DNA of 51,643 bases, from IMG/VR virus record IMGVR_UViG_3300009124_000023, positions 1-51,643 of that record; one strand, 5' to 3'. The stretch is from a virus (lineage: Duplodnaviria > Caudoviricetes). The position numbers and the translations under genes are program-made. The notes under the pieces were generated by a model. The model did not search any database, was not told the origin of the DNA, and was given only the letters and a program-made list of their open reading frames with translations. This document shows positions 21,201 to 51,643 of the stretch, piece by piece. Position 1 is the first letter of the stretch, and each line of letters starts with the position of its first letter.

Positions 21201-21978
21201 ATTAAGTAAAGCAGCTTTTAAAGTAATGAATAGAGATGTTTTAATACCTCAAGTAGGTAATAGGATGTTGTTTGCCCAAAGTCAAAATCCATACATTAGA
21301 AGTTTTGGACTATTTTTATCATGGGCACAGGCTAAAACATCACAGTTAAATGGTTTGATATCTAGAGTAGAATCAGGTGACGCTAAGTTAGCTTTAAAAA
21401 TGATGGGTGCTATAACTGTATTTGGTGGCTTGAGAGAGTTACAAATCATGGCAAGTCCTGCTCAAAAATATTATGCTGAAAATGAACCACCAAACTTTAG
21501 TGCAAAATGGTGGCAAGAAGCTGCTCAGTTATCAGGAAATGTAGATTGGAGAATTGAAAAATTTGCTAGGTTCTTTGGGGGACCTTCATTACGAAACCCT
21601 ATTGAAAATTTAAGTCCAGCTGTAGCTCAAGCAAGTAGAATTTTAGCAGCTCCATCAAAAATAAAAGCTAATATTGATGAAGGAGATTACGAGGGAGTTT
21701 TAGTTCAATTATTTAGACCAACACCAATAAATGAAATTACAGCTAGAGTATTAGAAGATGAGCCGAATAGAGAAGAAAAGAAAAAAGGTTTATCACAAAG
21801 AGCAGGTTTTAGTGTTGGTGGAGAAGTAAGAAAACAATACTTTGAAGGTCAAAAAGTTTCAAAAGATTATCCAGTTAGTGATGTCGAAGATATTCCAGCC
21901 GATAGAATCAATCCTTATACTGGCGAATCTTACTCAGGTAAAACAGAACTAGAGAAACAAATGGAAGAATTAATATAA
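18262..21978 (+). CDS. Large internal virion (ejection) protein
   Basis: 1238 aa; last and largest core gene before lysis; C-terminal RAGFSVGG and RINPYTG motifs. Confidence 0.7.
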   Translation: MVNESDIINKYLSLYYSEEEEKEDKYKEQLEQLEDIGETPIEYPEIEEPPVEQVVQAEQIQEDIIPDSDTNIVNKYLDLYYKQEETPFRAEILPQPEDSEVTVAQKTELGVRLEKTTLGNLWNLFKAGSLSLSNNKSLTDNIKLIEEERINKVYQDMQEKYGIDFRASENDAAVFAGRALVALGDPVTFFLPWAKFAKLGLLKNAAIGSGIASADMALYDYATNGEVNPNNVLFAAGLGGVSSAAGTVIANRVFGPKDKNINLGKLDGDENVVVQSTAKDNPVVTLNLKDSEALDDVAGKVATEYQALFKEMESTVHLNTMLTKAQADIKAYKDALKIIDKAADKSGQLELPILNKIKPVSPQKLSALKKKRDEAIKFINDDLPEVMGKYARGQVDLLDATFKKLHERPQYEISQNVLRGVLDNFTRPFLGAGVGFSIGTFLNDDDEYGLPISFMMAGAGLGAAQKWMQKTPYLTKGMKEEGLSILENNQMIALHNFLKVQSAGTLASKGIAHGGQNETLARMLFHIQDGKQRNIFSAEQATDAFNSYFSKEINKVVGNSSLNQQRAAWRIVRELDTEQGVIKKFNLTDDDMLNVRTLVKNTNEFKNMFNNGYVRKAGVSFGEIENYGLPQFYNDKIFSDASGFKKAIRAAIKEEDSDIITKFGKDKVKLKKYLDKRTDDIFNNMTGRGATKVFDENEKFTGIPLLKNFEKKRYFKKLSAVKKLEPYLEDNLHNVLIQWTRNTTKGVEFARKFGQRGELLKQLKYNLRSDYRAGKLSEAQYKSKRELLENTVNAYFGTHGGRVSDGHKTLMSILTFLSNTTMLPRAAIAQMGDFIQPLQNSSSGAAIRGIFSKFRKDRNFADQAGIANKSSSTIEKDIEALYTAGVNPNTQIQLLLGNWTRKFFKLNLMAPLTDRGARFAYNVGVEDAFLMAKKNANKTKLGKATVEKLQFMSLDKNELKYLNKFDKVTDAWNDSTGRSLLSKAAFKVMNRDVLIPQVGNRMLFAQSQNPYIRSFGLFLSWAQAKTSQLNGLISRVESGDAKLALKMMGAITVFGGLRELQIMASPAQKYYAENEPPNFSAKWWQEAAQLSGNVDWRIEKFARFFGGPSLRNPIENLSPAVAQASRILAAPSKIKANIDEGDYEGVLVQLFRPTPINEITARVLEDEPNREEKKKGLSQRAGFSVGGEVRKQYFEGQKVSKDYPVSDVEDIPADRINPYTGESYSGKTELEKQMEELI

Positions 21979-22433
21979 TGAATATAGAACTATGCAAACA
22001 AGAAATAAAAAGACACGAGGGCGAACTACTCGAAGTCTATGTCGATTCTTTGGGTTACAAAACCTTAGGAGTAGGGCATTTAATACAGCCACAAGACCCC
22101 GAACATGGTTGGGAAGTTGGTACTCCAATAACTCAAGAAGTATCTGACATATATTTTGAAGACGATTTCAATAAACATTTAGTAGAGGCGATACATGTGT
22201 TTGGTGAAGAAGAATCTTTTTATTTATTACCAGATGCTATTCAAAGAGTCTTGGTTAATATGTGCTTTAACTTAGGCGGTACAAGATTAAGCAAATTTCA
22301 AAACATGTTGAAAGCTTGTCGGTCACATGATTGGCAAGAAATGGCAAATCAAATGGAAGATAGTAAGTGGTTTAGACAAGTGGGACGAAGAAGTAAAGAG
22401 TTAAAAGAATTAGTATTAGGAGAAGTAAAATGA
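21978..22433 (+). CDS. Endolysin, T4-type lysozyme (GH24)
   Basis: HEG...Y.DSLGYKTLGVGHL catalytic E-D-T region; NMCFNLG; SKWFRQVGRR. Confidence 0.9.
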   Translation: MNIELCKQEIKRHEGELLEVYVDSLGYKTLGVGHLIQPQDPEHGWEVGTPITQEVSDIYFEDDFNKHLVEAIHVFGEEESFYLLPDAIQRVLVNMCFNLGGTRLSKFQNMLKACRSHDWQEMANQMEDSKWFRQVGRRSKELKELVLGEVK

Positions 22434-22903
22434 AAAACTTATTAAAGAATATCGTTGGTGCAGTTGCTCCTACTCTAGGTACTGCTTTAGGCGGTCCTAT
22501 GGGCGGTATGGCTGCGAATATGATTGCCGATGTGCTTGGGTGTCCAAATAACCCTAAAGCCATTGAGAAAGCCGTTGCTGAAGCCACACCAGAGCAGATG
22601 CTAGAACTTAAAAAAGCTGAACAAGCTTTTGAAGTACAGATGAAAGAGTTAGATGTTGATGTCTACAGATTAGAAGTAGCAGATACTCAAGATGCTAGAA
22701 AGAACTTTAGTAAAGACTGGACAGCCCGTATCATGGGTATAGCTACAGTCGGTGGTTTCTTAGGTTACATATTCTTAGTAACCCTACAGCCACCAGAACA
22801 GAACTCTGAAGCTCTTATTAACCTTGTTTTAGGTTACTTAGGAGGTTTGGCAAGTGCTGTAATATCTTTCTACTTTGGAGCTTCAAACTCAAGTAATAAG
22901 TAG
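22430..22903 (+). CDS. Holin-like membrane protein
   Basis: Two C-terminal TM helices ending SFYFGAS; coupled to the lysozyme. Confidence 0.65.
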   Translation: MKNLLKNIVGAVAPTLGTALGGPMGGMAANMIADVLGCPNNPKAIEKAVAEATPEQMLELKKAEQAFEVQMKELDVDVYRLEVADTQDARKNFSKDWTARIMGIATVGGFLGYIFLVTLQPPEQNSEALINLVLGYLGGLASAVISFYFGASNSSNK

Positions 22904-23253
22904 TGGAAGAGATAGTCACTATAATACAACAAGTAGGTTTTCCTATTGCTGCGGCATTAGGGCTAGGTTGGTTTATTTACAAACTAATCATGCGTATTGT
23001 CGATGGTATGGAAACCAAACTTGATGTTGTTGATGAGAAAGTAGCTGAACAAATAACAGCTATGGAACAGAGACTAGGGACAAAGTTAGATAGTCAATAC
23101 GGCATTATTGTTAGTCTGATTGACAGAGTGAGGGCTTTGGACAATCAAACGATTAGACAAGACGTTCTTTTGAAAACATTGCTGGGTGTGCCAAATTTAA
23201 TAGATTTAGAAAAAGTTGCAAAAGCAGATAGAGATGACCAAAGAAAAGATTAA
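22903..23253 (+). CDS. Membrane-anchored coiled-coil protein
   Basis: QQVGFPIAAALGLGWFIY TM helix then coiled coil; GTG start. Confidence 0.7.
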   Translation: MEEIVTIIQQVGFPIAAALGLGWFIYKLIMRIVDGMETKLDVVDEKVAEQITAMEQRLGTKLDSQYGIIVSLIDRVRALDNQTIRQDVLLKTLLGVPNLIDLEKVAKADRDDQRKD

Positions 23254-23266
23254 GGAGAAGTTAGAA

Positions 23267-23722
23267 ATGAAAATATTAGTAACAACATTTATCGTGTTGC
23301 TGTTAGGTGTTAATGGTAATTTAATTGCAGATGAAATAGTGCATAAATTTAAATCACCTTCCTTCAGTGGTATAGGTACTTCAGCTCATTATCTAACAAT
23401 AGAGAATCAAGAGTTCAATAGAAAGGAAGCCAACAAAGCAGAACTCAAAGCCTACAAAGAACAGCTTAAAAGAGAAGCTGAGAATACCACACTTGCAAGA
23501 TTTATTAGAAACTTAGAGTCTAGAATCTATGCACAATTATCAAGACAACTTGTTGATGCTTTATTTGGTGAGGACCCAAGTACAAGCGGAACATTAGAGC
23601 TATTAGGAAATACCATTGAATACAGTGTCAGTGAAGATGGCACCATGATAACTTTAACAATCACAGATGCAGAAGGGAATACTACAGAGATTACTGTTCC
23701 TATCGGTTCTTTTACTTTCTAG
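23267..23722 (+). CDS. csgF: Curli assembly protein CsgF-like
   Basis: Signal peptide, then EIVHKFKSPSFSG (cf. CsgF FQFRNPNFGG); RBS AAGGAG at 23252; adjacent to csgG. Confidence 0.8.
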   Translation: MKILVTTFIVLLLGVNGNLIADEIVHKFKSPSFSGIGTSAHYLTIENQEFNRKEANKAELKAYKEQLKREAENTTLARFIRNLESRIYAQLSRQLVDALFGEDPSTSGTLELLGNTIEYSVSEDGTMITLTITDAEGNTTEITVPIGSFTF

Positions 23723-24485
23723 TTGTACAAGCTGGAGGCATTCTGGTCTGTTAGATGAGGATATTCCCGGAGCTTATTCAAAGAGACAAGCAAGTACTGT
23801 TTTAGAATTACAATCTCAAGAATTATACAATCTACCAGCGGCTAAAGTTAAGCCGACTATTGCTATATATCCTAATAGTTTTACAGACTTAACAGGACAA
23901 CGTAAGAGTAATAGTACCTTTGCTTTGTTTAGCTCAGCAATAACACAGTCACCAGATGCATTTTTAATTAGAGCTTTTAAACATGCTGCAGGTGGTAAGT
24001 TTTTTACAGTTGTTGAACGTATAGGTTTAGATAACCTGACAAAAGAACGACAAATAATTAGAACAACTCGGCAGGACTTTGATGACGATACCGAACTCAA
24101 TCCTTTAATCTTTGCTGGGTTATTAGTTCAAGGTGGTGTTATAGGTTATGACACTAATTTGAAAAGTGGTGGACGAGGAGCCAGATACTTAGGTGTCGGT
24201 CAAAGCCGCCAGTATCGTGAAGATACAGTTACAGTTTCTTTGCGATTGGTTTCTGTTAATACAGGGGAAGTATTATTAGAAGTCCTGACATCTAAGACTA
24301 TTCTATCTGTTGGAGTATCTAGTGATGTCTTTAGATTCTATGAAGCTGGGACTAAGTTAGTGGAATTAGAATCTGGTGTAGCACAAAATGAAAGTGTTTC
24401 TATTGCCCTCCAAAAAGCGATAGAGACAAGTGTACTAGAAATAGTACGACAAGGAATAGAGAGGAGATATTGGAGATATGAATAG
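23667..24485 (+). CDS. csgG: Curli secretion channel CsgG lipoprotein
   Basis: Lipobox LLSSC; FTDLTGQRK, VERIGLDNLTKERQIIR, SGGRGARYLG, VTVSLRLVSVNTGEVL. Confidence 0.9.
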   Translation: MQKGILQRLLFLSVLLLSSCTSWRHSGLLDEDIPGAYSKRQASTVLELQSQELYNLPAAKVKPTIAIYPNSFTDLTGQRKSNSTFALFSSAITQSPDAFLIRAFKHAAGGKFFTVVERIGLDNLTKERQIIRTTRQDFDDDTELNPLIFAGLLVQGGVIGYDTNLKSGGRGARYLGVGQSRQYREDTVTVSLRLVSVNTGEVLLEVLTSKTILSVGVSSDVFRFYEAGTKLVELESGVAQNESVSIALQKAIETSVLEIVRQGIERRYWRYE

Positions 24486-25182
24486 ATTACTTTTTTTAAT
24501 TGCTTTAGTAGGCTTTGTTGTAAAAGCTGATAATGAAATATATATTAATCAAGTTGGTGCAACTCTTAACTTAGACGTTGAACAGCTTGGTAGCTCTAAC
24601 ATCATAGGCGGACTTGATGCAGTAACAGGGACGATGACTGCATTTAATTTAACTGGTGCTAATATGACGTTGGACATCAATCAACTTGGTGATACTAACA
24701 AATTCTTAGGTGACATAGTACTGGATTCTTTAACAGGTTTCTTTGAGTTTGATGGTGATAGCAACAACTTTGAAATACAAGTAGACCCAACCAATACTTA
24801 TAGTGCCGATGGTGGTAACTATTATGTTGATGTTACAGGGTCCAGCAATGACTTTGAATTAAACATTGCTACAAATGCTTTATCAGAATATCTAGACTTA
24901 GATTGGATTATTAATGGTGATAGTAACCAACTGGATTTTACTATTGATATTGATAGTGCCACATCTTATGTCGATATAGATGGTGACTCAAACATTGTTA
25001 ATTATACAGGTAGTGGTTATGCTGGTGGTTATTTTTACTTAGACCAAACAGGTAACAGCAGAACCTTTAATATTACACAAGCATCAACCTTAGCAAGTGA
25101 TTGGCTCAAGATTACTTCTTCTGGTAATAGTGGTACTGTGTGTGTCGTTCAAAACGATGGCGGCACAAGCACAAGCTGCTAG
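24478..25182 (+). CDS. Curlin-like secreted beta-solenoid protein
   Basis: Signal peptide; repeated (Q/D/T)-x-G-x-x-N units (QLGSSN, QLGDTN, DGDSN, TGSSN); C-terminal Cys pair; follows csgG. Confidence 0.7.
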   Translation: MNRLLFLIALVGFVVKADNEIYINQVGATLNLDVEQLGSSNIIGGLDAVTGTMTAFNLTGANMTLDINQLGDTNKFLGDIVLDSLTGFFEFDGDSNNFEIQVDPTNTYSADGGNYYVDVTGSSNDFELNIATNALSEYLDLDWIINGDSNQLDFTIDIDSATSYVDIDGDSNIVNYTGSGYAGGYFYLDQTGNSRTFNITQASTLASDWLKITSSGNSGTVCVVQNDGGTSTSC

Positions 25183-26209
25183 TATCGGAAGTATTACAGA
25201 ACTAAAAGGCATAGGCAGAGTAGTAAGGGAACAAGACCCTTTCTCTGCTGCCCTTGCTTTTGGTATTAATAGTTTTGACAACGTTGAAACTTCCAATGGT
25301 CGGATAGGTATAACCTTTCTAGATGAATCTCAAGTTCGTCTAACCGAACATTCACAACTCGTTATAGATGAATTTATCTATGACCCTGACCCATCTAAAT
25401 CTAAGATGGCTCTCAAGTTTGCTAGTGGTACAGCTCGTTTTATTACCGGTAAACTTGCCACTATAAACAAAGAAAATATCCAGATAGAAACTCCTAGTGC
25501 CACTATAGGTATTAGAGGTACTGACTTTACAGTGACTGTAGATGAGCTTGGTAGGTCCTTAATAATTTTACTACCAAAGGAAGATGGACTCTCTTCAGGC
25601 GAAATAGTTGTCTCAACTGCTGCGGGACAAGTAGTGCTTAATAAGCCCTATGAAGCTACCACAGTAGAGCTGTTTGAGTCAGCACCAAGTAGACCAGTCA
25701 TATTAGACTTAACTCTGGATATTATTGACAACATGTTGATAGTTAATCCACCGAAACGAGACCCTAACTTTATTAATGAAGGGGAACAAGCAGAAGGTTC
25801 AGATAATATCTTAGATGTTGATTACCTAGAGTTTGATGAACTAGAAACAGATTACTTAGCTCAAGACGAACTAGAGTTTAGTGAACTCGATATTAATTAT
25901 TTAGATGTCAACTTCTTAGAAGACTTACTAGATATTATTGAAGAAGCCGATGAGCTGGAAAAGAATCAGCTCTCAGGAGGCGATATAGACGTGAAGGGTA
26001 CATCCTTTGGTTACGATGGTACCACTCAAGTCAATACATTTATTACGGATTCAGTCATAACCTTTTACCGACAGGTACAAGATACAGTTAGGTTGGACTT
26101 AGATACCGGCAACAGTTATACAGTTTTAATTATACAAGATGGCAAAGCAGTTACTATTACTCTTAATGGCGGTGGTAACTCTTCCATTACTATCAAGCAA
26201 TCTCAGTGA
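25097..26209 (+). CDS. Secreted FecR-domain protein with acidic linker
   Basis: Signal peptide; ITFLDESQVRLTEHSQL and IETPSATIGIRGTDFTV FecR signatures. Confidence 0.85.
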   Translation: MIGSRLLLLVIVVLCVSFKTMAAQAQAASIGSITELKGIGRVVREQDPFSAALAFGINSFDNVETSNGRIGITFLDESQVRLTEHSQLVIDEFIYDPDPSKSKMALKFASGTARFITGKLATINKENIQIETPSATIGIRGTDFTVTVDELGRSLIILLPKEDGLSSGEIVVSTAAGQVVLNKPYEATTVELFESAPSRPVILDLTLDIIDNMLIVNPPKRDPNFINEGEQAEGSDNILDVDYLEFDELETDYLAQDELEFSELDINYLDVNFLEDLLDIIEEADELEKNQLSGGDIDVKGTSFGYDGTTQVNTFITDSVITFYRQVQDTVRLDLDTGNSYTVLIIQDGKAVTITLNGGGNSSITIKQSQ

Positions 26210-26630
26210 TAAGCCTGATATATATTGGAAGATTACAAAAGCACCTTACAGTAAAGAATTTTTAGCACAACAACAAAAAGAAGAATTAATCTTTGTAGAA
26301 GATACTTTGTATCTACCAGAAAGAAAAACAGTATCTAATTGGGAATGGGGTTTGTTTTGGACCTTACAAGCTTTAGATATTTATACCACTACTAAAGTTT
26401 TGCAATACGATTGTGTTTATGAAGCAAATATTTTATTACCAAGAAAACCAGATTTAAATGATTTAGTGAGACATAAAGCACTTATCTTTATACCAACTTT
26501 TATATTCTTACCAGTTTATAAATTAAATGAAGGTGGATTAACATTTAGTAATACCTTGACTGCTGCTGTAGTTGCTAATAATTTTGCTGTTAATAAAAGA
26601 GCTAAAGCCAAAGGCTGTCAGAAACTATGA
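26139..26630 (+). CDS. Hypothetical membrane protein
   Basis: Signal-like N-terminus, ALDIYTT...YEAN motif, hydrophobic segments; coupled to both neighbours. Confidence 0.65.
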   Translation: MAKQLLLLLMAVVTLPLLSSNLSDKPDIYWKITKAPYSKEFLAQQQKEELIFVEDTLYLPERKTVSNWEWGLFWTLQALDIYTTTKVLQYDCVYEANILLPRKPDLNDLVRHKALIFIPTFIFLPVYKLNEGGLTFSNTLTAAVVANNFAVNKRAKAKGCQKL

Positions 26631-28363
26631 AGTGGGCTAGTATATTATTATTATTTCTGACACTGCCTCTAGTGTTCAATGCTCCACCTCTGGAGATAAT
26701 GCGGCTCAAGACTTTTGATTATCTTGTCGAGACTCCAGAGCCTACAGGTTACTTTACTATCTTAAATATAGATGAAGAATATCTTGACAAACAAGGCGGT
26801 TATCCACTTCCTAGAGCCACATTAGCAGATATCCATCTAAAACTTTTACAAAAAGGTGCGTTAGGTGTTGGTTGGGTTATGTTGTTTCCCCATCCTGATA
26901 GGCTCGGTGGTGATGAAGACTTTGCCTACATGCTCAGCTTAGCTCCTAGTGTGATAGCTATGCCTGAAATAAATAATGACCAGTATCCAGAAACACATGG
27001 TACAGTTATACTTGGTCCTGATGTTACATTACCACAGGCTCAAGGCTTTTTAGAAAATATTCCCCTACTGAAAGAAGCATCTGCTCAAGGAGCAGTCTCA
27101 GTCCCTGTCGATGTCGATAACTTAGTCAGACAGATTCCTCTCATACAACAGACTCCAGAGGGCTGGGTAGCTTCCTTCGGTACAGAAGTATTAAAGATAC
27201 TAGGTGGTGGTAACACTTATCAAATTAAAACCAACGAGAATGGTATTGAGATGGTTAGAGTCAAGGGCATACCAGCTATACCCACAGATAGCCTAGGTAA
27301 GAAATGGATTAGTTGGGTTGATACTCCTCAAACAAATTTAACAGAGATGGATGTTGAAGGTAAGTTTGTCTTTGTTGGGTTTACAGCTAAAGGTATCATG
27401 CCACAAGTTGCAACTCCTGCAGGTTTGTTAGAACCTCATAAAATACAAGCAGCACTTGCAGAATCTATTTTATTAGAGACACCAAGTATTCCAGACTATA
27501 GATTAGTAGTTGAACTAATGTTATTAGTAGTCTCAGGCTTCATAGTTGCAGCTCTAATTAATTATTTAGGTATCACCTTAGGATTGACCTTAGTTACAAT
27601 TTACAAGACTGCTATCAGCTATTTAGGACTTTACCTCATTTCACAAAATGTGTTAATAGATGTAACTTGGACACTTGTTGCAACTTTTATAATCGCTTCA
27701 CAACAATTTTATTTAAACTTTAGAAAGCAATACAAACTAAGACAACAGATTAAAAAACAATTTGAACATTATCTTGACCCTAGACAAGTTAAAAGATTGC
27801 AAAGTAATCCAGAGTTGTTAAAACTAGGTGGCGAAAAAAGAAGATGTACTTTCTTGTTTACCGATGTAAGAGGTTTTACTTCTTTGTCTGAAAGACTAGA
27901 GCCAGAGGAAGTGACAGAGATAATGAACAAAGCTTTGACCATTCAAGCCAATGCAGTAAAAGCAAACGATGGTATGGTGGATAAGTATATTGGTGATGCG
28001 ATGATGGCGATATTCAATGCACCTTTAGATTTAGACAACCATGAAGACAGAGCTATTAAGACAGCTCTTCAAATAGCACACGACATGCAAGAAGCACAGT
28101 TAGGCATTGATATTGGTATCGGAATAAATACAGGCAAAGCTGTTGTAGGTAATATGGGTAGTTCTTCACGATTCGATTATACAGCTATAGGTGATGCAGT
28201 TAATTTAGCAGCTAGACTTGAAAGCTCAACCAAAGAAGTTCAACAAGATATTGTTATTGGTGAGGAGACTATGAAGGGTTCTTCCTACGATTTAGTTGCT
28301 TTAGAGCCTATAAAGGTCAAAGGTAAGGAAAAATCCATCAAAATCTACACAATTTTAGGCTAA
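26627..28363 (+). CDS. CHASE2-domain membrane adenylyl cyclase (class III)
   Basis: NIDEE...GGYPLPR, PDRLGGDEDFA, DVDNLVRQIP CHASE2 motifs; 3 TMs; FTDVRGFT, DKYIGDA, YTAIGDAVNLAARLE. Confidence 0.92.
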   Translation: MKWASILLLFLTLPLVFNAPPLEIMRLKTFDYLVETPEPTGYFTILNIDEEYLDKQGGYPLPRATLADIHLKLLQKGALGVGWVMLFPHPDRLGGDEDFAYMLSLAPSVIAMPEINNDQYPETHGTVILGPDVTLPQAQGFLENIPLLKEASAQGAVSVPVDVDNLVRQIPLIQQTPEGWVASFGTEVLKILGGGNTYQIKTNENGIEMVRVKGIPAIPTDSLGKKWISWVDTPQTNLTEMDVEGKFVFVGFTAKGIMPQVATPAGLLEPHKIQAALAESILLETPSIPDYRLVVELMLLVVSGFIVAALINYLGITLGLTLVTIYKTAISYLGLYLISQNVLIDVTWTLVATFIIASQQFYLNFRKQYKLRQQIKKQFEHYLDPRQVKRLQSNPELLKLGGEKRRCTFLFTDVRGFTSLSERLEPEEVTEIMNKALTIQANAVKANDGMVDKYIGDAMMAIFNAPLDLDNHEDRAIKTALQIAHDMQEAQLGIDIGIGINTGKAVVGNMGSSSRFDYTAIGDAVNLAARLESSTKEVQQDIVIGEETMKGSSYDLVALEPIKVKGKEKSIKIYTILG

Positions 28364-28374
28364 ACTGCATAGGA

Positions 28375-28475
28375 GACTCTCAGAGGCTCTGTAACGAATT
28401 TAATAGCTTTTTGGACGTATAGTATTCCTTACTCTTAATCAATACGTTACAGGCGATTCTATGAGGTCATTTTTT
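28375..28475. terminator. Long imperfect inverted repeat at the convergence of late and early/middle transcription
   Basis: CTGTAACG (28389) / CGTTACAG (28445) with extended flanking pairing and a T-run at 28470. Confidence 0.45.
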
Positions 28476-28483
28476 AAAAAATT

Positions 28484-28705
28484 CTAATTTTTGATGGCAT
28501 TTATTTCACCTTCAAGATAATGATGAATTTTATTTAATTTTTCTCGACCTTGCTTAATTATTGTTTCCATAATCTTAGCTTCGTGTCCAGTAAAAACTTT
28601 CTCCACATCTTTTAAAGGTAGTCCGGAAACTTCAGTTATTAATTTTCCAGTGTCATCAAACAATATTCTATAGGATAAAATATTTGCTTCTCTTGTTTGG
28701 TCCAT
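28484..28705 (-). CDS. Hypothetical protein
   Basis: Coupled to the nrdB stop. Confidence 0.7.
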   Translation of the reverse strand: MDQTREANILSYRILFDDTGKLITEVSGLPLKDVEKVFTGHEAKIMETIIKQGREKLNKIHHYLEGEINAIKN

Positions 28706-29676
28706 TATTCAATATCACTAAATGTAATTTTATCTTGCTTACCTCTTAGTCCTGCTTTCATATATGAAGTGGCTCTACCCTCAAAGAAGTTTTGATGTTC
28801 AACACCCATAACTTCATCTAACCATGGTAACGGATTATCTCTTTGGTCATAATTGGTTTTTAATCCCAACTGCAATAATCTTCTATCAGCTATGTATCTA
28901 TTGTATTTATACATATCTTCTTTTGTTAGTCCTTCGATGTCTCCCATCTCAAATACTAAGTCTAAGAACCTATCCTCAAGTTCTACCATCTTACGACAGA
29001 TGTCATAGATTTCTTTTTTGAAATCGTCAGTCCAGATAGAAATGTTTTCTTTGATAAATTCTCTAAAGACTTTAGTCATACCTTCCACATGTAAAGATTC
29101 ATCACGGATAGAATAGGTAACTATTTGACCCATGCCTTTCATCTTACCGAACCTTGGAAAGTTTAACAAAATTGCAAAGCTAGAAAATAACTGTAAGCCT
29201 TCAGTAAATGCAGAATAAACTGCTAACGTTTTGGCAATCGTTTCTTTATTTGCTTTAGATGGTTTGAAGTTACCAATGTAATCATGTTTGTTAGCCATCT
29301 CTTCATACTCAGCAAAGGCTTGGTATTCTGCTTCTGGCATTCCAACTGTGTCTAATAATAAACTGTAAGCATGTTGATGGATGGATTCCATATTAGCAAA
29401 AGAAGTCATCATCATTCTTGCTTCAGGTTTTTTAAATAACCTCATATACTTATTGGTATAACCTTCACCAACATCCACATCAGACTGCGTAAACAGTCTA
29501 AAGATTTGTGTTAATAAATTCTTTTCATTGTCTGTCAAGTCTTGCCAGTCTTTAACATCAGTGTGTAAAGGTACTGACTCCGGCATCCAATGCATTTGAT
29601 TCTGTAAGACATAGTAGTCAAACATCCAAGGGTATTCAAAAGGTTTGTAGTATTCTCTTCTAGTTAGTAAGCTCAT
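28705..29676 (-). CDS. nrdB: Ribonucleotide reductase class I beta subunit
   Basis: HWMPESVP, FTQSD, MESIH..AY, EGLQLFSSF, RDESLH, NFFE. Confidence 0.95.
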   Translation of the reverse strand: MSLLTRREYYKPFEYPWMFDYYVLQNQMHWMPESVPLHTDVKDWQDLTDNEKNLLTQIFRLFTQSDVDVGEGYTNKYMRLFKKPEARMMMTSFANMESIHQHAYSLLLDTVGMPEAEYQAFAEYEEMANKHDYIGNFKPSKANKETIAKTLAVYSAFTEGLQLFSSFAILLNFPRFGKMKGMGQIVTYSIRDESLHVEGMTKVFREFIKENISIWTDDFKKEIYDICRKMVELEDRFLDLVFEMGDIEGLTKEDMYKYNRYIADRRLLQLGLKTNYDQRDNPLPWLDEVMGVEHQNFFEGRATSYMKAGLRGKQDKITFSDIE

Positions 29677-38761: not shown

Positions 38762-39244
38762 TTAAACACTCCACCAAATGGGTCTGGCTCTGCCCTTCTC
38801 CCATTTAGCATAGTGCTTCTCATGTATGACATAATCTCTATATGCCAATACAGGGTCTTGTTTCTTATATTGGTCTGGCATTGCTAAGGCAACAGGGGTC
38901 ATATCTGTTTGAGATATGTTTACAGGAGTTCTCGACAATGCCACTACCAATCTTTTACATGCGTGTTCTTTAGTGTATCTGTATTCATATTCGTCTAACA
39001 AGCTGGTAAAGTGTTTAAACAACCAGTTATAATTACTAGACGATGCTCTTGCCCAAACTGTGCAAGGATGATTCTTATATGCTTCTTTGTATAACCCTAC
39101 CTCATCGGCATACTCATTACCATCCAACACTCTATGAGCTGTGCAAAGCATTTGTGCAGTTTCTAATACCATCTTGACTAACATCTTATCGGGTTGTGAA
39201 ATTGCTGCAACCTTTGCATTTGTATCTGTAAAAAATATATTCAT
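38762..39244 (-). CDS. Pyrimidine dimer DNA glycosylase / endonuclease V family
   Basis: MNIF...DKMLVKMVLETAQML...YK..YKNHPCTVWAR...AMPD.YK. Confidence 0.85.
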   Translation of the reverse strand: MNIFFTDTNAKVAAISQPDKMLVKMVLETAQMLCTAHRVLDGNEYADEVGLYKEAYKNHPCTVWARASSSNYNWLFKHFTSLLDEYEYRYTKEHACKRLVVALSRTPVNISQTDMTPVALAMPDQYKKQDPVLAYRDYVIHEKHYAKWEKGRARPIWWSV

Positions 39245-43547: not shown

Positions 43548-44126
43548 TTAGAGTTCGGGGATTAGTTCACTCTCTAAGCATGAGGGACAGTCCCAATTGT
43601 TAACCCTTGCAATGTTAGCCCTTGAAGTCCTAAAGGAAAACTCACAAGAACTACAAGCAACCTTTATATTCCGAACTGTTTGCTTTTTCCTGTTGCTCAA
43701 ATCTACTTGAGCATGAGGATACTTCCCAAGCTTTTTAGATATTGCTTCTAATTGCTCCGTCAGTTCTTCACCGGCTACTGTTGCCGTCATCTTGCCTTCA
43801 AGTCCTATGGCTAGGGCTATTTTTCTAAACAATCCCTTATGTCCACTTTTACAATCATCAATAGCGTGGATTAGTTCATGCGTTAAGACATCCAACACCC
43901 TTATTGAATCATCCAAAGACGGACTGATATTTATTTCATTCACTCCAGCTTTGCTCAAGGCTCGAGGGAAACAAGTCCCTAGGGTTCTAGACTTTTGCCC
44001 AGCGTTGCCAGATGGTGACCAACTGCAAGAGATTTTCACATCCTTTGGCACTTCATACCCATGCTGTTTAAACACTTGCGAATTCAAAAGCTTTGATGCT
44101 TTTGTTAAATATTCTTCTCTATTCAT
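43548..44126 (-). CDS. SprT-like Zn metalloprotease with C-terminal Zn ribbon
   Basis: LTHELIHA (HExxH), GHKGLF, CSSC...CPSC. Confidence 0.8.
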   Translation of the reverse strand: MNREEYLTKASKLLNSQVFKQHGYEVPKDVKISCSWSPSGNAGQKSRTLGTCFPRALSKAGVNEINISPSLDDSIRVLDVLTHELIHAIDDCKSGHKGLFRKIALAIGLEGKMTATVAGEELTEQLEAISKKLGKYPHAQVDLSNRKKQTVRNIKVACSSCEFSFRTSRANIARVNNWDCPSCLESELIPEL

Positions 44127-48546: not shown

Positions 48547-50787
48547 ATGGCAGAAGATAACAACAACGAAAATTCTTTTTTAAATGCCGACTACATCTAT
48601 GAAGATGTTGAAGGTGAAGCAGGAAAAAATTTAAATCTCATTCCTGACCAAAAGAATAATTTAGTCGGACTTATTCAAAGTCGTTTTACTGTTGCTGAAG
48701 AAGCTAGAGACGTTGATGAACGTAGATGGCTTGAAGCCTATGAAAACTACAGAGGACTTTACGGCAAACGTGTTAAGTTTAGAGAATCCGAAAAGTCTCG
48801 TATCTTTATTAAGATAACAAAAACAAAAGTACTAGCTGCTTTTGGTCAATTAGTCGATGTACTATTTGGCACAGGTAAGTTTCCTATTGGTATTAGTGAA
48901 ACTAAAATACCTGAGGGTGAAAGAGAAGATGCTCATTTAGATTTTCAAAATCCACAACCCGGTATCGAAACTTCACAACCTGAGCAAATGCCTGACAATA
49001 TTGGTAATCTTGTCGGTGGTCCATTTGACATAGGTTATGAAGGTGATGGTAAAGTTCTGAAACCGGGAGCTACATTTGGCGATGGGATGTTTGAAGAATC
49101 TGAACAATCCTTAGAAGACAAAGCTGAACAATTAGGCATCTTACGAGAAGGTACTTCACCAGACCCACAAAAGTTAGAACTATCTCCAGCACAAAGAGCT
49201 GCGAGAAGAATGGAAAAATTAATCCATGACCAAATTGAAGAATCAAATGGTTCTTCTGAAATGAGAAGTGCATTACTAGAATCAGCACTATTAGGAACAG
49301 GAATTATTAAGGGTCCTTTTAATTTCAACAAAACTCTTAATAATTGGCAAGTTAATGAAGAAGGTGAAAGAGTATATTCACCTGTCAAGGTTAGAGTACC
49401 GAGAATTGAATTTGTAAGTTGCTGGGACTTTTACCCAGACCCCGGTGCAACTAATATCGAAGAATGTGAGTATATTATTCATAGACATAGAATGAATACT
49501 TCACAGTTAAGAGCATTGAAAAACATGCCTTACTTTGATAACGATGCTATCCGTGAAGCAATTCAAAATGGTCCTAACTACATAGAAAAAGACTTTGAAA
49601 GTCAAATCAAGGACGACTACTCTCCTGAAGAAGCATACTCAAATGCGTTTGAAGTAGTTGAATACTGGGGTATCATGGATGCTCAGTATGCTAGAGAAGT
49701 AGGTATCGAACTTGAAGATGACATAGACGATTTAGATGAAGTGCAAGTTAATGCATGGATTTGTGGTGATAAGTTATTAAGGGCGGTAATTAACCCATTC
49801 ACACCTTACAGAATACCTTATCATGCTTTCCCATACGAAAGGAATCCTTATAATTTCTTTGGTGTTGGAGTAGCTGAGAATATGAATGATTCACAGCAGA
49901 TTATGAATGGTCATGCAAGAATGGCTATTGATAACCTTGCTTTGTCTGGTTCTTTGGTATTTGACATAGATGAATCAGCTTTGGTAGCTGGTCAGAATAT
50001 GGAAATATATCCCGGTAAAATCTTTAGAAGACAAGCTGGGATGCCGGGACAAGCCATTTATGGTTTAAAGTTCCCAAACACTGCACCTGAAAACATGATG
50101 ATGTTTGATAGGTTTAGACAGTTAGCGGATGAGCAAACAGGTATACCAAGTTACTCACATGGTCAAACAGGAGTACAAAGTATGACAAGAACTGCTTCCG
50201 GTATGTCAATGTTATTAGGAGCAGCAAGTTTAAACATTAAAACAGTTGTTAAGAATCTTGACGACTTTTTATTGAAGCCTTTAGGAGAAGCTTATTTCGC
50301 ATGGAATATGCAATTCTTTGAAGGTGATTTAGACGTTAAAGGTGATTTAGAAGTTAAGGCTACTGGTACCAATAGCTTGATGCAGAAAGAAGTTAGAAGT
50401 CAAAGATTGACAATGTTCTTACAAACTGCACAAAGTCCAGCCATTGCACCATTTGTTAAGATTTCTAAGTTGGTTAGTGAACTTGCCTACAGTCTTGATT
50501 TGGACCCTGATGAAATACTCAATGACCCAGAAGAGGCTGCAATGATGGCACAAATAATAGGTATGCAAAATGTTAGACAAGAAACTGGCGAAGAAGCTCA
50601 ACCTCTTGGTGAACAACCGGGAGCTATGGGAGGCATTCAAGGAACACCTCAACAACCAACGGAACTTGGACCTACAGGCACTGGTGGTGGCAACATCGGA
50701 GTTGGAAATGTACCGGTTGCAGGGGAAGATTCGTTTAGTGGGACAGTTGGAGCAGTTACAGCAGCAGGTGCAGGAAGCCCTGAATAG
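48547..50787 (+). CDS. Portal protein (allele B, full length)
   Basis: 746 aa after terL; LGTGIIKG, WDFYPDP, FFGVGVAE, RTASGMSML motifs. Confidence 0.9.
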   Translation: MAEDNNNENSFLNADYIYEDVEGEAGKNLNLIPDQKNNLVGLIQSRFTVAEEARDVDERRWLEAYENYRGLYGKRVKFRESEKSRIFIKITKTKVLAAFGQLVDVLFGTGKFPIGISETKIPEGEREDAHLDFQNPQPGIETSQPEQMPDNIGNLVGGPFDIGYEGDGKVLKPGATFGDGMFEESEQSLEDKAEQLGILREGTSPDPQKLELSPAQRAARRMEKLIHDQIEESNGSSEMRSALLESALLGTGIIKGPFNFNKTLNNWQVNEEGERVYSPVKVRVPRIEFVSCWDFYPDPGATNIEECEYIIHRHRMNTSQLRALKNMPYFDNDAIREAIQNGPNYIEKDFESQIKDDYSPEEAYSNAFEVVEYWGIMDAQYAREVGIELEDDIDDLDEVQVNAWICGDKLLRAVINPFTPYRIPYHAFPYERNPYNFFGVGVAENMNDSQQIMNGHARMAIDNLALSGSLVFDIDESALVAGQNMEIYPGKIFRRQAGMPGQAIYGLKFPNTAPENMMMFDRFRQLADEQTGIPSYSHGQTGVQSMTRTASGMSMLLGAASLNIKTVVKNLDDFLLKPLGEAYFAWNMQFFEGDLDVKGDLEVKATGTNSLMQKEVRSQRLTMFLQTAQSPAIAPFVKISKLVSELAYSLDLDPDEILNDPEEAAMMAQIIGMQNVRQETGEEAQPLGEQPGAMGGIQGTPQQPTELGPTGTGGGNIGVGNVPVAGEDSFSGTVGAVTAAGAGSPE

Positions 50788-50803
50788 AAAAGAGGAAGCA
50801 TGA
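50570..50803 (+). CDS. Allele B of the 77-aa overlapping ORF
   Basis: Identical to 665..898 except the last residue. Confidence 0.8.
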   Translation: MLDKKLAKKLNLLVNNRELWEAFKEHLNNQRNLDLQALVVATSELEMYRLQGKIRLVGQLEQLQQQVQEALNRKEEA

Positions 50804-51643
50804 GAAATTTATTAGATGACGATAATAAAAGATTAGAAGGACCAGAACAAAGAGTTGTTGATTTTGGTATGCGAGACGACTATGTTAATCAAGGTATTTT
50901 AACAGGAATTATTAGTGAAGTTAAAATGATTAACAAATATAAAGATACTAAAAAATATGACAGTCCTGAAAAATTAGAAGCTCATCTAAATGAATATATA
51001 AATGAAGTAGCAGATAATACCAAAGATTTAGGTTCTCTTAATAAAGAAGTTATGAGGGATGAATTTAGAAAAGAACTTGGTATTTATGAAAAAAGAAAAG
51101 AATTAAAAGATGGTGGCGACCCAAACGAAGGTATAACAGAATTAAGGAAAGTTGCACCTGAAGTAGTTGAAAGAATGGGTTTTCAAGAGGGCGGCGAAAA
51201 TGATGCTCCAGAACTTGATAGAAAAATATACACAAGTCCTGAAAAGATAAAAGAATATGCAGATTATTATGGCATATCAGAGAAAGAAGTCATAGACAGA
51301 CATCAACAATGGAATTTAGGACAATGGCAAAACATATTTAAAAAAGTAGGATTTGATGTTGATAATGATTATGAATTAAATAGATTGCAAGATTATGGCG
51401 AAGGACAAACATTAAATACAAAACTTAAAAAAGAATTATTTAATAAATATAACCTACCTGAAGATTCATCAAAAGAAGATGTACTGGAATTTGTAAAAGA
51501 AGTAAGACCAGATTCTGCAGAAAAAGGTTTATTTGAAAGAGAACAAAAAGCTGAAGGTGGCGAAATGGAAATGCTACCTGACGAAGAAATGGAACAAAAC
51601 TTTATAGACTTTATAGTGGACGAAGCATTGTCCGAAGAAGAAG
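50800..51643 (+). CDS. Allele B of the 900..1880 gene with a different N-terminal region (3'-truncated; not in ORF track)
   Basis: Open from ATG 50800 (MRNLLDDD...) to the edge; rejoins allele A at EREQKAEGGEM and EMLPDEEMEQNFIDF. Confidence 0.85.
   Translation, partial: MRNLLDDDNKRLEGPEQRVVDFGMRDDYVNQGILTGIISEVKMINKYKDTKKYDSPEKLEAHLNEYINEVADNTKDLGSLNKEVMRDEFRKELGIYEKRKELKDGGDPNEGITELRKVAPEVVERMGFQEGGENDAPELDRKIYTSPEKIKEYADYYGISEKEVIDRHQQWNLGQWQNIFKKVGFDVDNDYELNRLQDYGEGQTLNTKLKKELFNKYNLPEDSSKEDVLEFVKEVRPDSAEKGLFEREQKAEGGEMEMLPDEEMEQNFIDFIVDEALSEEE

Follow-up and report, generated by a model that had tools for sequence, protein, structure and literature searches.

The window analysed here is IMG/VR virus record IMGVR_UViG_3300009124_000023 over its whole length of 51,643 nucleotides (positions 1-51,643; completeness rating 100%), and the subject of this study is a block of overlapping + strand genes at 23267-28363 that encode CsgF-like, CsgG-like and curlin-like proteins, an exported FecR-fold protein and a receptor adenylate cyclase with a CHASE2 domain. 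The block is almost certainly a copy of the published pelagiphage 'viral T8SS/curli' (T8SS, type VIII secretion system) cassette, carried by a ~50-kb marine podovirus. This cassette has already been described from pelagiphages of both podovirus and myovirus type (Wittmers et al., 2022, PMC9599517). The find is therefore not a new one, and what it contributes are sharper hypotheses, namely a FecR-CHASE2 sensor pair and self-cleavage of the FecR-fold protein at a GT motif. Added here are the upstream gene p116 as a seventh member, the GT motif, the recurrence of FecR-CHASE2 pairs in cells, the scarcity of cyclic-nucleotide-binding (cNMP-binding) domains in the probable host family, and the reading of the fifth open reading frame (ORF), g5, as an insert.

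The members of the block were the following:

22903..23253, + strand: p116, membrane anchor and coiled coil (phrog_18771; homologues upstream of csgF elsewhere)
23267..23722, + strand: CsgF-like protein with signal peptide (Pfam CsgF 4.2e-16)
23667..24485, + strand: CsgG-like outer-membrane lipoprotein pore (Pfam CsgG 4.7e-48)
24478..25182, + strand: curlin-like subunit of 234 aa with signal peptide, predicted beta-solenoid (repeats, AlphaFold2 model)
25097..26209, + strand: exported FecR-fold protein (Pfam FecR 4.4e-12, AlphaFold2 model)
26139..26630, + strand: g5, small variable 163-aa ORF with signal-peptide-like N-terminus (absent from most relatives)
26627..28363, + strand: receptor adenylate cyclase, 578 aa, CHASE2 and class III domains (Pfam CHASE2 4.1e-26, Guanylate_cyc 1.6e-21)

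The ORF layout and the Pfam matches confirmed the six overlapping, co-oriented genes that a sequence-only reading had placed at 23267-28363. Consecutive ORFs overlapped by 56, 8, 86, 71 and 4 nt, and the first, which as an ORF extends to 23216, was rightly taken to start at 23267, where an AAGGAG box precedes the ATG. The export signals proposed earlier were likewise found, as a hydrophobic N-terminal segment at the start of all six proteins and a lipobox (L-S-S-C) in CsgG.

The CsgG-like protein matched its family (PF03783) with 163.7 bits vs. a cut-off of 20.8, and E. coli CsgG structures over residues 50-270 (phmmer, 4.7e-43). Of the constriction-loop residues of E. coli CsgG (Tyr, Asn, Phe), the Phe was kept in the alignment, and the Tyr and Asn positions were occupied by Asn and Leu. 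CsgF covered profile positions 8-132 of 132 (59.8 bits vs. a cut-off of 25.8) and was 46-48% identical to the CsgF proteins of Pelagibacter phage HTVC008M and Methylophilales phage Melnitz. Its BLASTP comparison with E. coli CsgF was insignificant (E 7.1) and phmmer against PDB sequences gave chance matches only; the protein is a member of the CsgF family (PF10614) by Pfam only. Pfam scans, made at E<=0.01 for the nine ORFs of the block and at E<=0.001 for 60 further window ORFs (69 in total), gave no family match for CsgE, as the sequence-only reading had it, nor for CsgD or CsgC.

The product of p116 is a 116-aa protein with a transmembrane (TM)-like segment within residues 4-33 and a coiled coil. 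In HTVC008M and in Melnitz alike, csgF is immediately preceded by two tandem homologues of p116 (tblastn 2e-11 to 7e-7), with no lysis gene near them, and because these homologues adjoin csgF in both myophages, p116 (22903-23253) is regarded as a seventh, constant cassette member rather than a lysis gene. This corrects the earlier description of the block as six genes appended to the lysis cassette. Pfam gave p116 no family beyond chance at E<=10 (only DUF7365, 0.064, and YvrJ, 0.15), and neither a HisKA nor a HATPase_c kinase domain was found in it. Among the 120 listed of its 1658 relatives none had a name or a Pfam domain, and its Atlas clusters were viral and unnamed. Judging by position, p116 is probably the 'histidine kinase' gene of PMC9599517, a label that finds no support in the protein sequence here.

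The curlin-like protein contains ~7-8 G-x-x-N repeats and a C-terminal Cys pair, and its G and N columns were invariant in an alignment of 45 relatives. Its AlphaFold2 model was all-beta with 19 strands (mean predicted local distance difference test score, pLDDT, 87.4), and comparison with 48,161 chains returned Pontibacter CsgA (8C50_A) on top (Z 17.2, 189 aligned residues, root mean square deviation (rmsd) 8.8, 19% identity). The Melnitz homologue passes Pfam Curlin_rpt (PF07012) with 26 bits. The protein was called curlin-like because this homologue passes Curlin_rpt and because the predicted beta-solenoid best matches the CsgA structure. A profile search of PDB sequences gave chance matches only, and Foldseek against PDB gave nothing at E<=0.001 and only weak beta-helix rows. 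Because unrelated beta-helices reach Z ~16, the model shows the predicted fold class, a beta-solenoid, but not kinship with CsgA; 'curlin-like' is a fair label that stops short of placing the protein in the curlin family. The 3' end of this gene overlaps the signal-peptide part of the FecR gene in a different frame over 86 nt (25097-25182). In 13 of 14 related loci inspected the overlap measured 86-92 nt, and the 134 nt of the fourteenth is probably a start artefact of the ORF caller.

The FecR-fold protein passed Pfam FecR (PF04773) with 46.7 bits vs. a cut-off of 24, and its AlphaFold2 model comprised a signal peptide, a beta domain (~29-213), an acidic disordered linker, a helix and a small C-terminal beta domain (residues 300-367). 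Model residues 58-219 matched PupR (6OVK_R) with Z 15.1 and rmsd 2.5 over 136 aligned residues, covering PupR residues 111-257 only, which are part of its periplasmic signalling domain; Foldseek matched the beta domain to cell-surface signalling regulators at 1.4e-4 to 2.1e-4. Neither an anti-sigma domain nor a membrane helix was present in the protein, in which a signal-peptide-like segment is followed by the beta domain, and no counterpart was detected in it of the transducer-binding C-terminal end of PupR-type regulators, which we take to be the STN subdomain. Pfam gave no family of TonB-dependent transducers or extracytoplasmic function (ECF) sigma factors among the 69 window ORFs. Residues R140 G141 T142 D143 F144 (window 25514-25528) were invariant in 49/49 relatives, and E. 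coli FecR carries the local motif L-G-T-E-F-T-V at G181/T182, its self-cleavage site (PMC8144685). The equivalence of the two GT sites is drawn from the shared motif, not from a significant alignment: hhalign against E. coli FecR gave a probability of 0.26% with a shifted register, and the profile had one chance match among PDB sequences. The motif suggests that the exported FecR-fold protein would be cut in two at GT. A 'pore plug' role of the C-terminal domain was considered and rejected, as the middling match to the 'cell surface anchoring domain' of 5IX9 (Z 7.2) maps to residues 27-122 of the FecR domain.

In the cyclase, CHASE2 (92.5 bits) and Guanylate_cyc (77.2 bits) both exceeded the Pfam cut-offs. 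Its layout comprises an N-terminal anchor, a periplasmic CHASE2 domain (~13-301), membrane segment(s) and a class III domain (405-576), with TM-like segments at 1-24 and 293-311. Alignment to the Cya2 structures 2W01 and 6FHT put D413 and D457 at the metal positions, K453 and T519 at the base-specifying positions and N526 and R530 at the transition-state positions, which we take to be the roles of the metal Asp pair, the adenine Lys and Thr/Ser, and the transition-state Asn/Arg. The residue corresponding to K453 is K in the adenylate cyclase fusion 6FHT and E in the guanylate cyclase Cya2 (2W01). D413, D457, K453, N526, R530 and R515 were invariant in 57/57 relatives, and position 519 was T in 35 and S in 22 of them. 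By this alignment the catalytic residues are all intact, in agreement with the residues picked out by the sequence-only reading.

Between the FecR and cyclase genes, g5 was far less constant. Any match to it was present in 4/80 loci picked by the cyclase and in 22/79 picked by CsgG, 15 of the latter near full length; where it was present it was 38-44% identical at loci whose neighbouring genes were 84-88% identical, and its ratio of nonsynonymous to synonymous substitution (dN/dS) was ~0.83. In contigs of sequencing runs X1 and X9, g5 is missing and 26205 is joined directly to 26627, with sides so short (26-33 letters) that these joints are supportive only. The Atlas placed g5 in viral clusters of 146-157 aa with a weak DUF5658 lead. 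From these comparisons g5 is a fast-evolving, dispensable insert in a variable slot. In Melnitz the same slot holds a 338-aa curlin-repeat protein, and in HTVC008M it holds gp018 (L002, 6639-7964), a 441-aa protein annotated 'hypothetical protein' in which a PA14 domain (2.7e-6) precedes curlin repeats (5.2e-8). The HTVC008M protein is a possible lectin-tipped fibre subunit.

Conservation, assembly and genome context

A scan of IMG/VR with the cyclase found relatives of it in at least 597 viral contigs, of which the best 80 were examined, together with 79 loci picked by CsgG. Linkage was counted over the loci whose sequence reached far enough, and both samples consist of best-scoring rows:

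p116: 40/40 cyclase-picked, 72/74 CsgG-picked
CsgF: 42/42 cyclase-picked, 75/75 CsgG-picked
CsgG: 50/50 cyclase-picked, query in the CsgG-picked sample
Curlin-like: 57/57 cyclase-picked, 68/68 CsgG-picked
FecR: 69/69 cyclase-picked, 59/59 CsgG-picked
Cyclase: query in the cyclase-picked sample, 47/47 CsgG-picked

Cassettes lacking a part may exist among lower-scoring loci, as PMC9599517 says. Computed against two relatives, dN/dS was 0.07-0.15 for CsgG, 0.10 for the curlin-like gene, 0.07 for FecR and 0.14-0.17 for the cyclase. CsgG, the curlin-like protein, FecR and the cyclase are under purifying selection, and the strong selection postulated from the size of the block is supported; for comparison, the small subunit of ribonucleotide reductase (RNR) gave 0.05-0.07.

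Every junction was bridged by contigs of four public runs from four studies, and the flanks in the 80 and 79 viral loci consisted of phage lysis, structural or RNR genes. A search of 185,579 species genomes with the viral FecR profile gave 284 confirmed stretches, and among the best 80 of these, eight were contigs of metagenome-assembled genomes (MAGs) that carried the whole cassette, all <=61 kb and labelled Neomarinimicrobiota, Maricaulis, Pelagibacter, Parvibaculum or Flavobacteriaceae. Such bacterial labels are what host DNA mis-assembled into a phage contig, a possibility raised by the sequence-only reading, would lead one to expect. Three of the eight carry p157 and one of these three also an endolysin-like match; because of these matches and their shortness, the contigs look like binned phage DNA. 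Together with the bridged junctions, the phage flanks and the presence of the cassette in cultured HTVC008M and Melnitz, this leaves mis-assembly a practically negligible chance.

Within the window, the cassette closes a + strand block of portal, capsid and tail genes that leads through the lysis gene and p157 to p116, and an RNR operon in the opposite orientation lies downstream of the cyclase. The two genes immediately upstream were:

21978..22433, + strand: endolysin, lysis gene upstream of the cassette (Pfam Phage_lysozyme 2.7e-9; PHROG endolysin 1.1e-17)
22430..22903, + strand: p157, holin-like membrane protein, context (phrog_1544, function unknown; two C-terminal TM-like segments)

The label 'holin-like' is one that we infer for p157. 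The gene had no match in the HTVC008M or Melnitz loci and is not a cassette part in the myophages; in other podovirus lineages it sits after the cyclase and before the endolysin. Adjacency to lysis genes recurs among podoviruses in at least three arrangements, namely endolysin-p157-p116-cassette as in the window, cassette-p157-endolysin (L057, L061) and cassette-Rz-like spanin-...-endolysin (L083, L010).

The region 3' of the cyclase is a second variable slot: a contig of the RNA-library run X16 carries 708 different letters in place of the 176 bases (28264-28441) that separate the 3' end of the cyclase from the following gene, a gap in which some relatives, L022 among them, hold an additional 137-aa ORF. 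Contigs of X16 occurred in all 30 bins at low depth and may be DNA, hence they are not proof of transcription. The RNA fold of the cyclase/RNR intergenic region had a z of -0.30. No tRNA genes were found in the window, and its early region on the - strand encodes a pyrimidine-dimer DNA glycosylase (38762-39244, Pfam 1.5e-7) and an SprT-like protein (43548-44126, 7.9e-6).

The window ends were redundant (1-882 vs. 49906-50787): the first 293 codons agree at 289/293 positions with the C-terminal portion of the portal gene at the opposite end; in the second pair (900-1880 vs. 50800-51642) the following gene differs except for a 56-residue stretch. Such ends suggest a circularly permuted genome that was closed on a variant strain, which would explain a record that is 'linear' yet '100% complete'. 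Because of this redundancy the unique genome measures ~49.9 kb and the cassette occupies ~10-11% of it, in line with the tenth estimated earlier.

Cellular FecR-CHASE2 loci, the host and cyclic AMP

In the other 72 cellular loci only the FecR domain of the viral protein matched, never beyond residue 234. A CHASE2-like ORF, sought with a self-built profile, occurred in the flanks of 16/72 of them, nine of the 16 in Pelagibacteraceae, and a CsgG relative occurred near the FecR gene in 0/72. The synteny for which the sequence-only reading proposed a search recurred in the viral loci, in HTVC008M and in Melnitz, and did not extend to these cellular loci. Because the FecR-CHASE2 pair recurs in cells, and never with CsgG among the loci examined, the cassette looks like a curli export set joined to such a pair. 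An example is the operon of Pelagibacter sp. HIMB1495 (L104, 2214-11466), which encodes a CHASE2-SpoIIE (PP2C) protein, an unknown 540-aa protein, a FecR-domain protein (493 aa), an unknown 473-aa protein with a weak TPR match and a second FecR-domain protein (883 aa). In Burkholderia a LysM-FecR gene lies beside a CHASE2 histidine kinase in one operon (BiofilmReg; PMC5192318), and in S. meliloti the locus tag of cyaD1 (SMc02176) is directly followed by that of a FecR-domain gene, smc02177, which belongs to the same pathway (PMC5498481).

The capsid and terminase were closest to those of Pelagibacter phages HTVC115P, HTVC103P and HTVC104P (60/53/53% and 64% identity, respectively), which points to a host in the Pelagibacteraceae. 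An even sample of 61 genomes of this family contained the following:

cNMP-binding domain: 2/61 genomes (59 without)
Class III cyclase: 3/61, two being phage-cassette contigs and one a fragment with seven stops
CsgG: 3/61, two being the same phage-cassette contigs
CHASE2: 13/61, 11 native and 2 phage

A CHASE2 count of 5/5 Pelagibacteraceae was discarded as biased, the genomes having been picked via FecR genes; the even sample gave 11 native cases in 61. The two Pelagibacteraceae contigs with the phage cassette (L170, G064:C11; L171, G015:C1) carry it at 52-70% identity and could stem from phage DNA binned with the genomes or from single cells under infection, which would give a possible link to the host. 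As G015 also accounts for one of the two genomes with cNMP-binding matches, it may be a mixed bin.

Because 59/61 genomes are without a cNMP-binding domain, host CRP is an unlikely target of cyclic AMP (cAMP) if the host belongs to the Pelagibacteraceae, and the earlier suggestion of host CRP reprogramming is disfavoured on that condition. In a rather improbable extension, the cassette would introduce cAMP synthesis into a host lineage with apparently no native cAMP system, and the cAMP could act as a second messenger that belongs to the phage and reflects the state of the envelope. If that were true, the reader of the cAMP would be a phage or host protein not recognised as such, or would lie outside the cell, and the messenger could report superinfection or lysis timing. 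As a variant, the phage FecR-fold protein could plug into the host's CHASE2-PP2C and FecR operon, a native operon in 11/61 genomes.

Proposed mechanism and rival explanations

We propose that the cassette joins a pore and fibre for curli-type export to a FecR-CHASE2 sensor pair governing cAMP synthesis, a mechanism to which, taken as a whole, we give an even chance. The genes would be transcribed together and late, given their position after the structural genes and endolysin and the lack of above-chance promoters or terminators between them (21500-29000: 22 vs. 24.2 and 2 vs. 3.6 in shuffles, respectively). The six products with Sec-type N-termini would then leave the cytoplasm, and the CsgG lipoprotein, homologous to known CsgG, would assemble into an outer-membrane channel capped by CsgF in a host without such a system. 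The predicted curlin-like beta-solenoid would be the substrate of this channel, deposited on the cell surface as a fibre or coat. The FecR-fold protein and the periplasmic CHASE2 domain would form a sensor pair, as in the cellular FecR-CHASE2 operons, that sets the rate of cAMP production by the intact class III domain, with p116, the predicted membrane-anchored coiled coil, as the constant seventh part.

Several observations weigh against this proposal. Regarding the fibre, unrelated generic beta-helices score Z ~16 with the curlin-like model vs. 17.2 for CsgA, the protein itself is below the Curlin_rpt cut-off (8.2 vs. 20.7 bits), and hhalign against E. coli CsgA gave an insignificant probability of 2.3%. 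The curlin-like subunit of the sequence-only reading stands as a predicted beta-solenoid with a Melnitz homologue above the cut-off, and falls short on its own repeat score. Melnitz cultures, moreover, showed no clumping (PMC9004378). Regarding the sensor pair, no CHASE2 was found with the self-built profile near FecR in 56/72 cellular loci, and smc02177 was reported dispensable for signal perception in S. meliloti (PMC5498481). The cyclase is inverted in 5/80 loci (L026, L034, L052, L054, L065), where it follows the RNR genes, shares their strand and is convergent with the rest of the cassette, so tight co-translation of FecR and cyclase is not obligatory. Regarding cAMP, the host is placed in the Pelagibacteraceae from phage relatives only, a native intact class III cyclase occurred in 0/61 genomes of that family, and a receiver of cAMP is not in sight, as 59/61 of these genomes lack a cNMP-binding domain and no cNMP-binding protein was found among the 69 window ORFs.

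The lack of clumping is equally what a role in lysis timing or envelope opening would predict, in which, after Buchholz et al. (2022), ungated CsgG/CsgF would act as an outer-membrane pore or pinholin-like trigger, the other genes would tune its opening and no fibre would be made. The adjacency of podovirus cassettes to lysis genes in at least three arrangements fits this as well, as does the lack of a CsgE gate among the window ORFs, and weak Atlas leads (0.88-0.89, below the 0.9 line) connect p116 to holin-like and Mu releasin-like clusters. However, CsgF and the curlin-like gene were always kept in the loci counted, and the latter, needless for a bare pore, experiences purifying selection no weaker than that acting on CsgG. 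Accessory genes in general often land beside lysis genes, the cassettes of HTVC008M and Melnitz are not beside lysis genes, and a CsgG channel in the outer membrane cannot by itself depolarise the inner membrane. We therefore consider a lysis-timing role fairly unlikely. An ungated pore that admits nutrients or cofactors to the infected cell's periplasm (Zaragoza-Solas et al., 2020, PMC7029224; Wittmers et al., 2022, PMC9599517, both of which raise the possibility) would also agree with the missing CsgE. It leaves the constant CsgF, curlin-like protein, FecR-fold protein, p116 and cyclase unexplained, as PMC7029224 notes for CsgF. An uptake channel is accordingly very unlikely. Its channel would probably be narrow as well, because the constriction-loop Phe is kept, a residue whose role we presume from E. 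coli CsgG.

A trans-envelope sensor would use the same parts differently: an event outside the cell, such as contact or superinfection, would be relayed from fibre and pore by the FecR-fold protein to the CHASE2 cyclase, in the manner of FecA-FecR or NsrA-CyaD/K. The match to the periplasmic signalling domain of PupR, the GT motif kept in 49/49 relatives and the perfect linkage of the parts in the loci examined favour it, and the NsrA precedent invoked by the sequence-only reading is in print, CHASE2 cyclases of S. meliloti being reported to sense a protein signal via this outer-membrane protein (PMC13001267). However, the match is confined to PupR 111-257, and the anti-sigma, TM and transducer-binding parts, the TonB-dependent transducer and the ECF sigma factor were all missing from the places searched. 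Cellular FecR-CHASE2 pairs do without CsgG, and the dispensability of smc02177, the inverted cyclases and the want of a cAMP receiver in the phage and in most of the sampled host family count here too. We regard such a sensor as unlikely, and the circuit of the sequence-only reading, in which a fibre and a FecR relay switch on cAMP synthesis, goes beyond the evidence and has no direct support.

If the proposed export pore and sensor pair is right, SAR11-type cells would gain an outer-membrane secretion system that they lack, which bears on the surface, aggregation and signalling of infected cells in a group that ranks among the most abundant bacteria of the ocean. With at least 597 contigs encoding a cyclase relative, the cassette is abundant in ocean viruses.

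Comparison with known systems

Wittmers et al. (2022, mSystems) reported the region in nine pelagiphage podovirus genomes and in myophages, with a 'histidine kinase', CsgF, CsgG, CsgA/B, FecR, often a second CsgA/B, and adenylate cyclase, without CsgE, and at 7.8 +/- 1.6% of the genome; they reported transcripts, proposed an alphaproteobacterial origin with later transfer between phage families, and recorded the cassette at all 65 stations analysed (PMC9599517). The sequence-only reading was right about csgF/csgG in Pelagibacter myophages, and missed that the whole block, including FecR and cyclase, had been published there. The myophage copies were also treated by Zaragoza-Solas et al. (2020, PMC7029224) and Buchholz et al. 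(2022, PMC9004378), and a literature search of limited reach turned up no later experimental work on the cassette. The window shares with the published podovirus cassette the gene set and order, one or two small upstream genes, an optional extra gene, the missing CsgE, a share of ~8-10% of a marine podovirus genome and synteny with the myophage copies. It differs in that the extra slot holds a 163-aa ORF rather than a second curlin. PMC9599517, which distinguishes ten clades, mentions CHASE2 nowhere, the domain being identified here, and does not name the nearest cultured relatives HTVC115P, HTVC103P and HTVC104P.

Protein searches of 50,697 phage records found cyclase, FecR and CsgG together only in HTVC008M and four Melnitz records; blastn of the block against the same records gave no match, the similarity being at the protein level only. 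HTVC008M gp011-gp019 and Melnitz genes 97-104 have the same order, p116-like (two copies)-CsgF-CsgG-curlin-FecR-X-cyclase, and their proteins are 31-49% identical to those of the window. Unlike the podovirus studied here, both are T4-like myophages of ~141-147 kb, and their cassettes lie between replication and tail or baseplate genes rather than beside lysis genes.

With E. coli curli (csgDEFG / csgBAC) the phage cassette shares a homologous CsgG, a CsgF that belongs to the family by Pfam and a repeat-built putative substrate with a predicted beta-solenoid fold. It is without CsgE, CsgD and CsgC and adds the FecR, CHASE2 cyclase and p116 genes, which the E. coli locus does not show and which, according to PMC9599517, bacterial curli loci at large lack as well. 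The FecR-fold protein shares with the FecR, PupR and FoxR regulators the periplasmic beta-domain fold and the G-T-[DE]-F-T self-cleavage motif, and has a signal peptide instead of their anti-sigma domain and membrane helix. Cellular FecR-CHASE2 operons are alike in encoding an exported FecR-domain protein beside a membrane protein with a periplasmic CHASE2 domain, and identity between viral and cellular FecR domains reaches 40% over ~140 residues. Their outputs differ, being a histidine kinase, a PP2C phosphatase or a cyclase, and nothing past residue 234 of the viral protein, its C-terminal half, matched the cellular loci examined.

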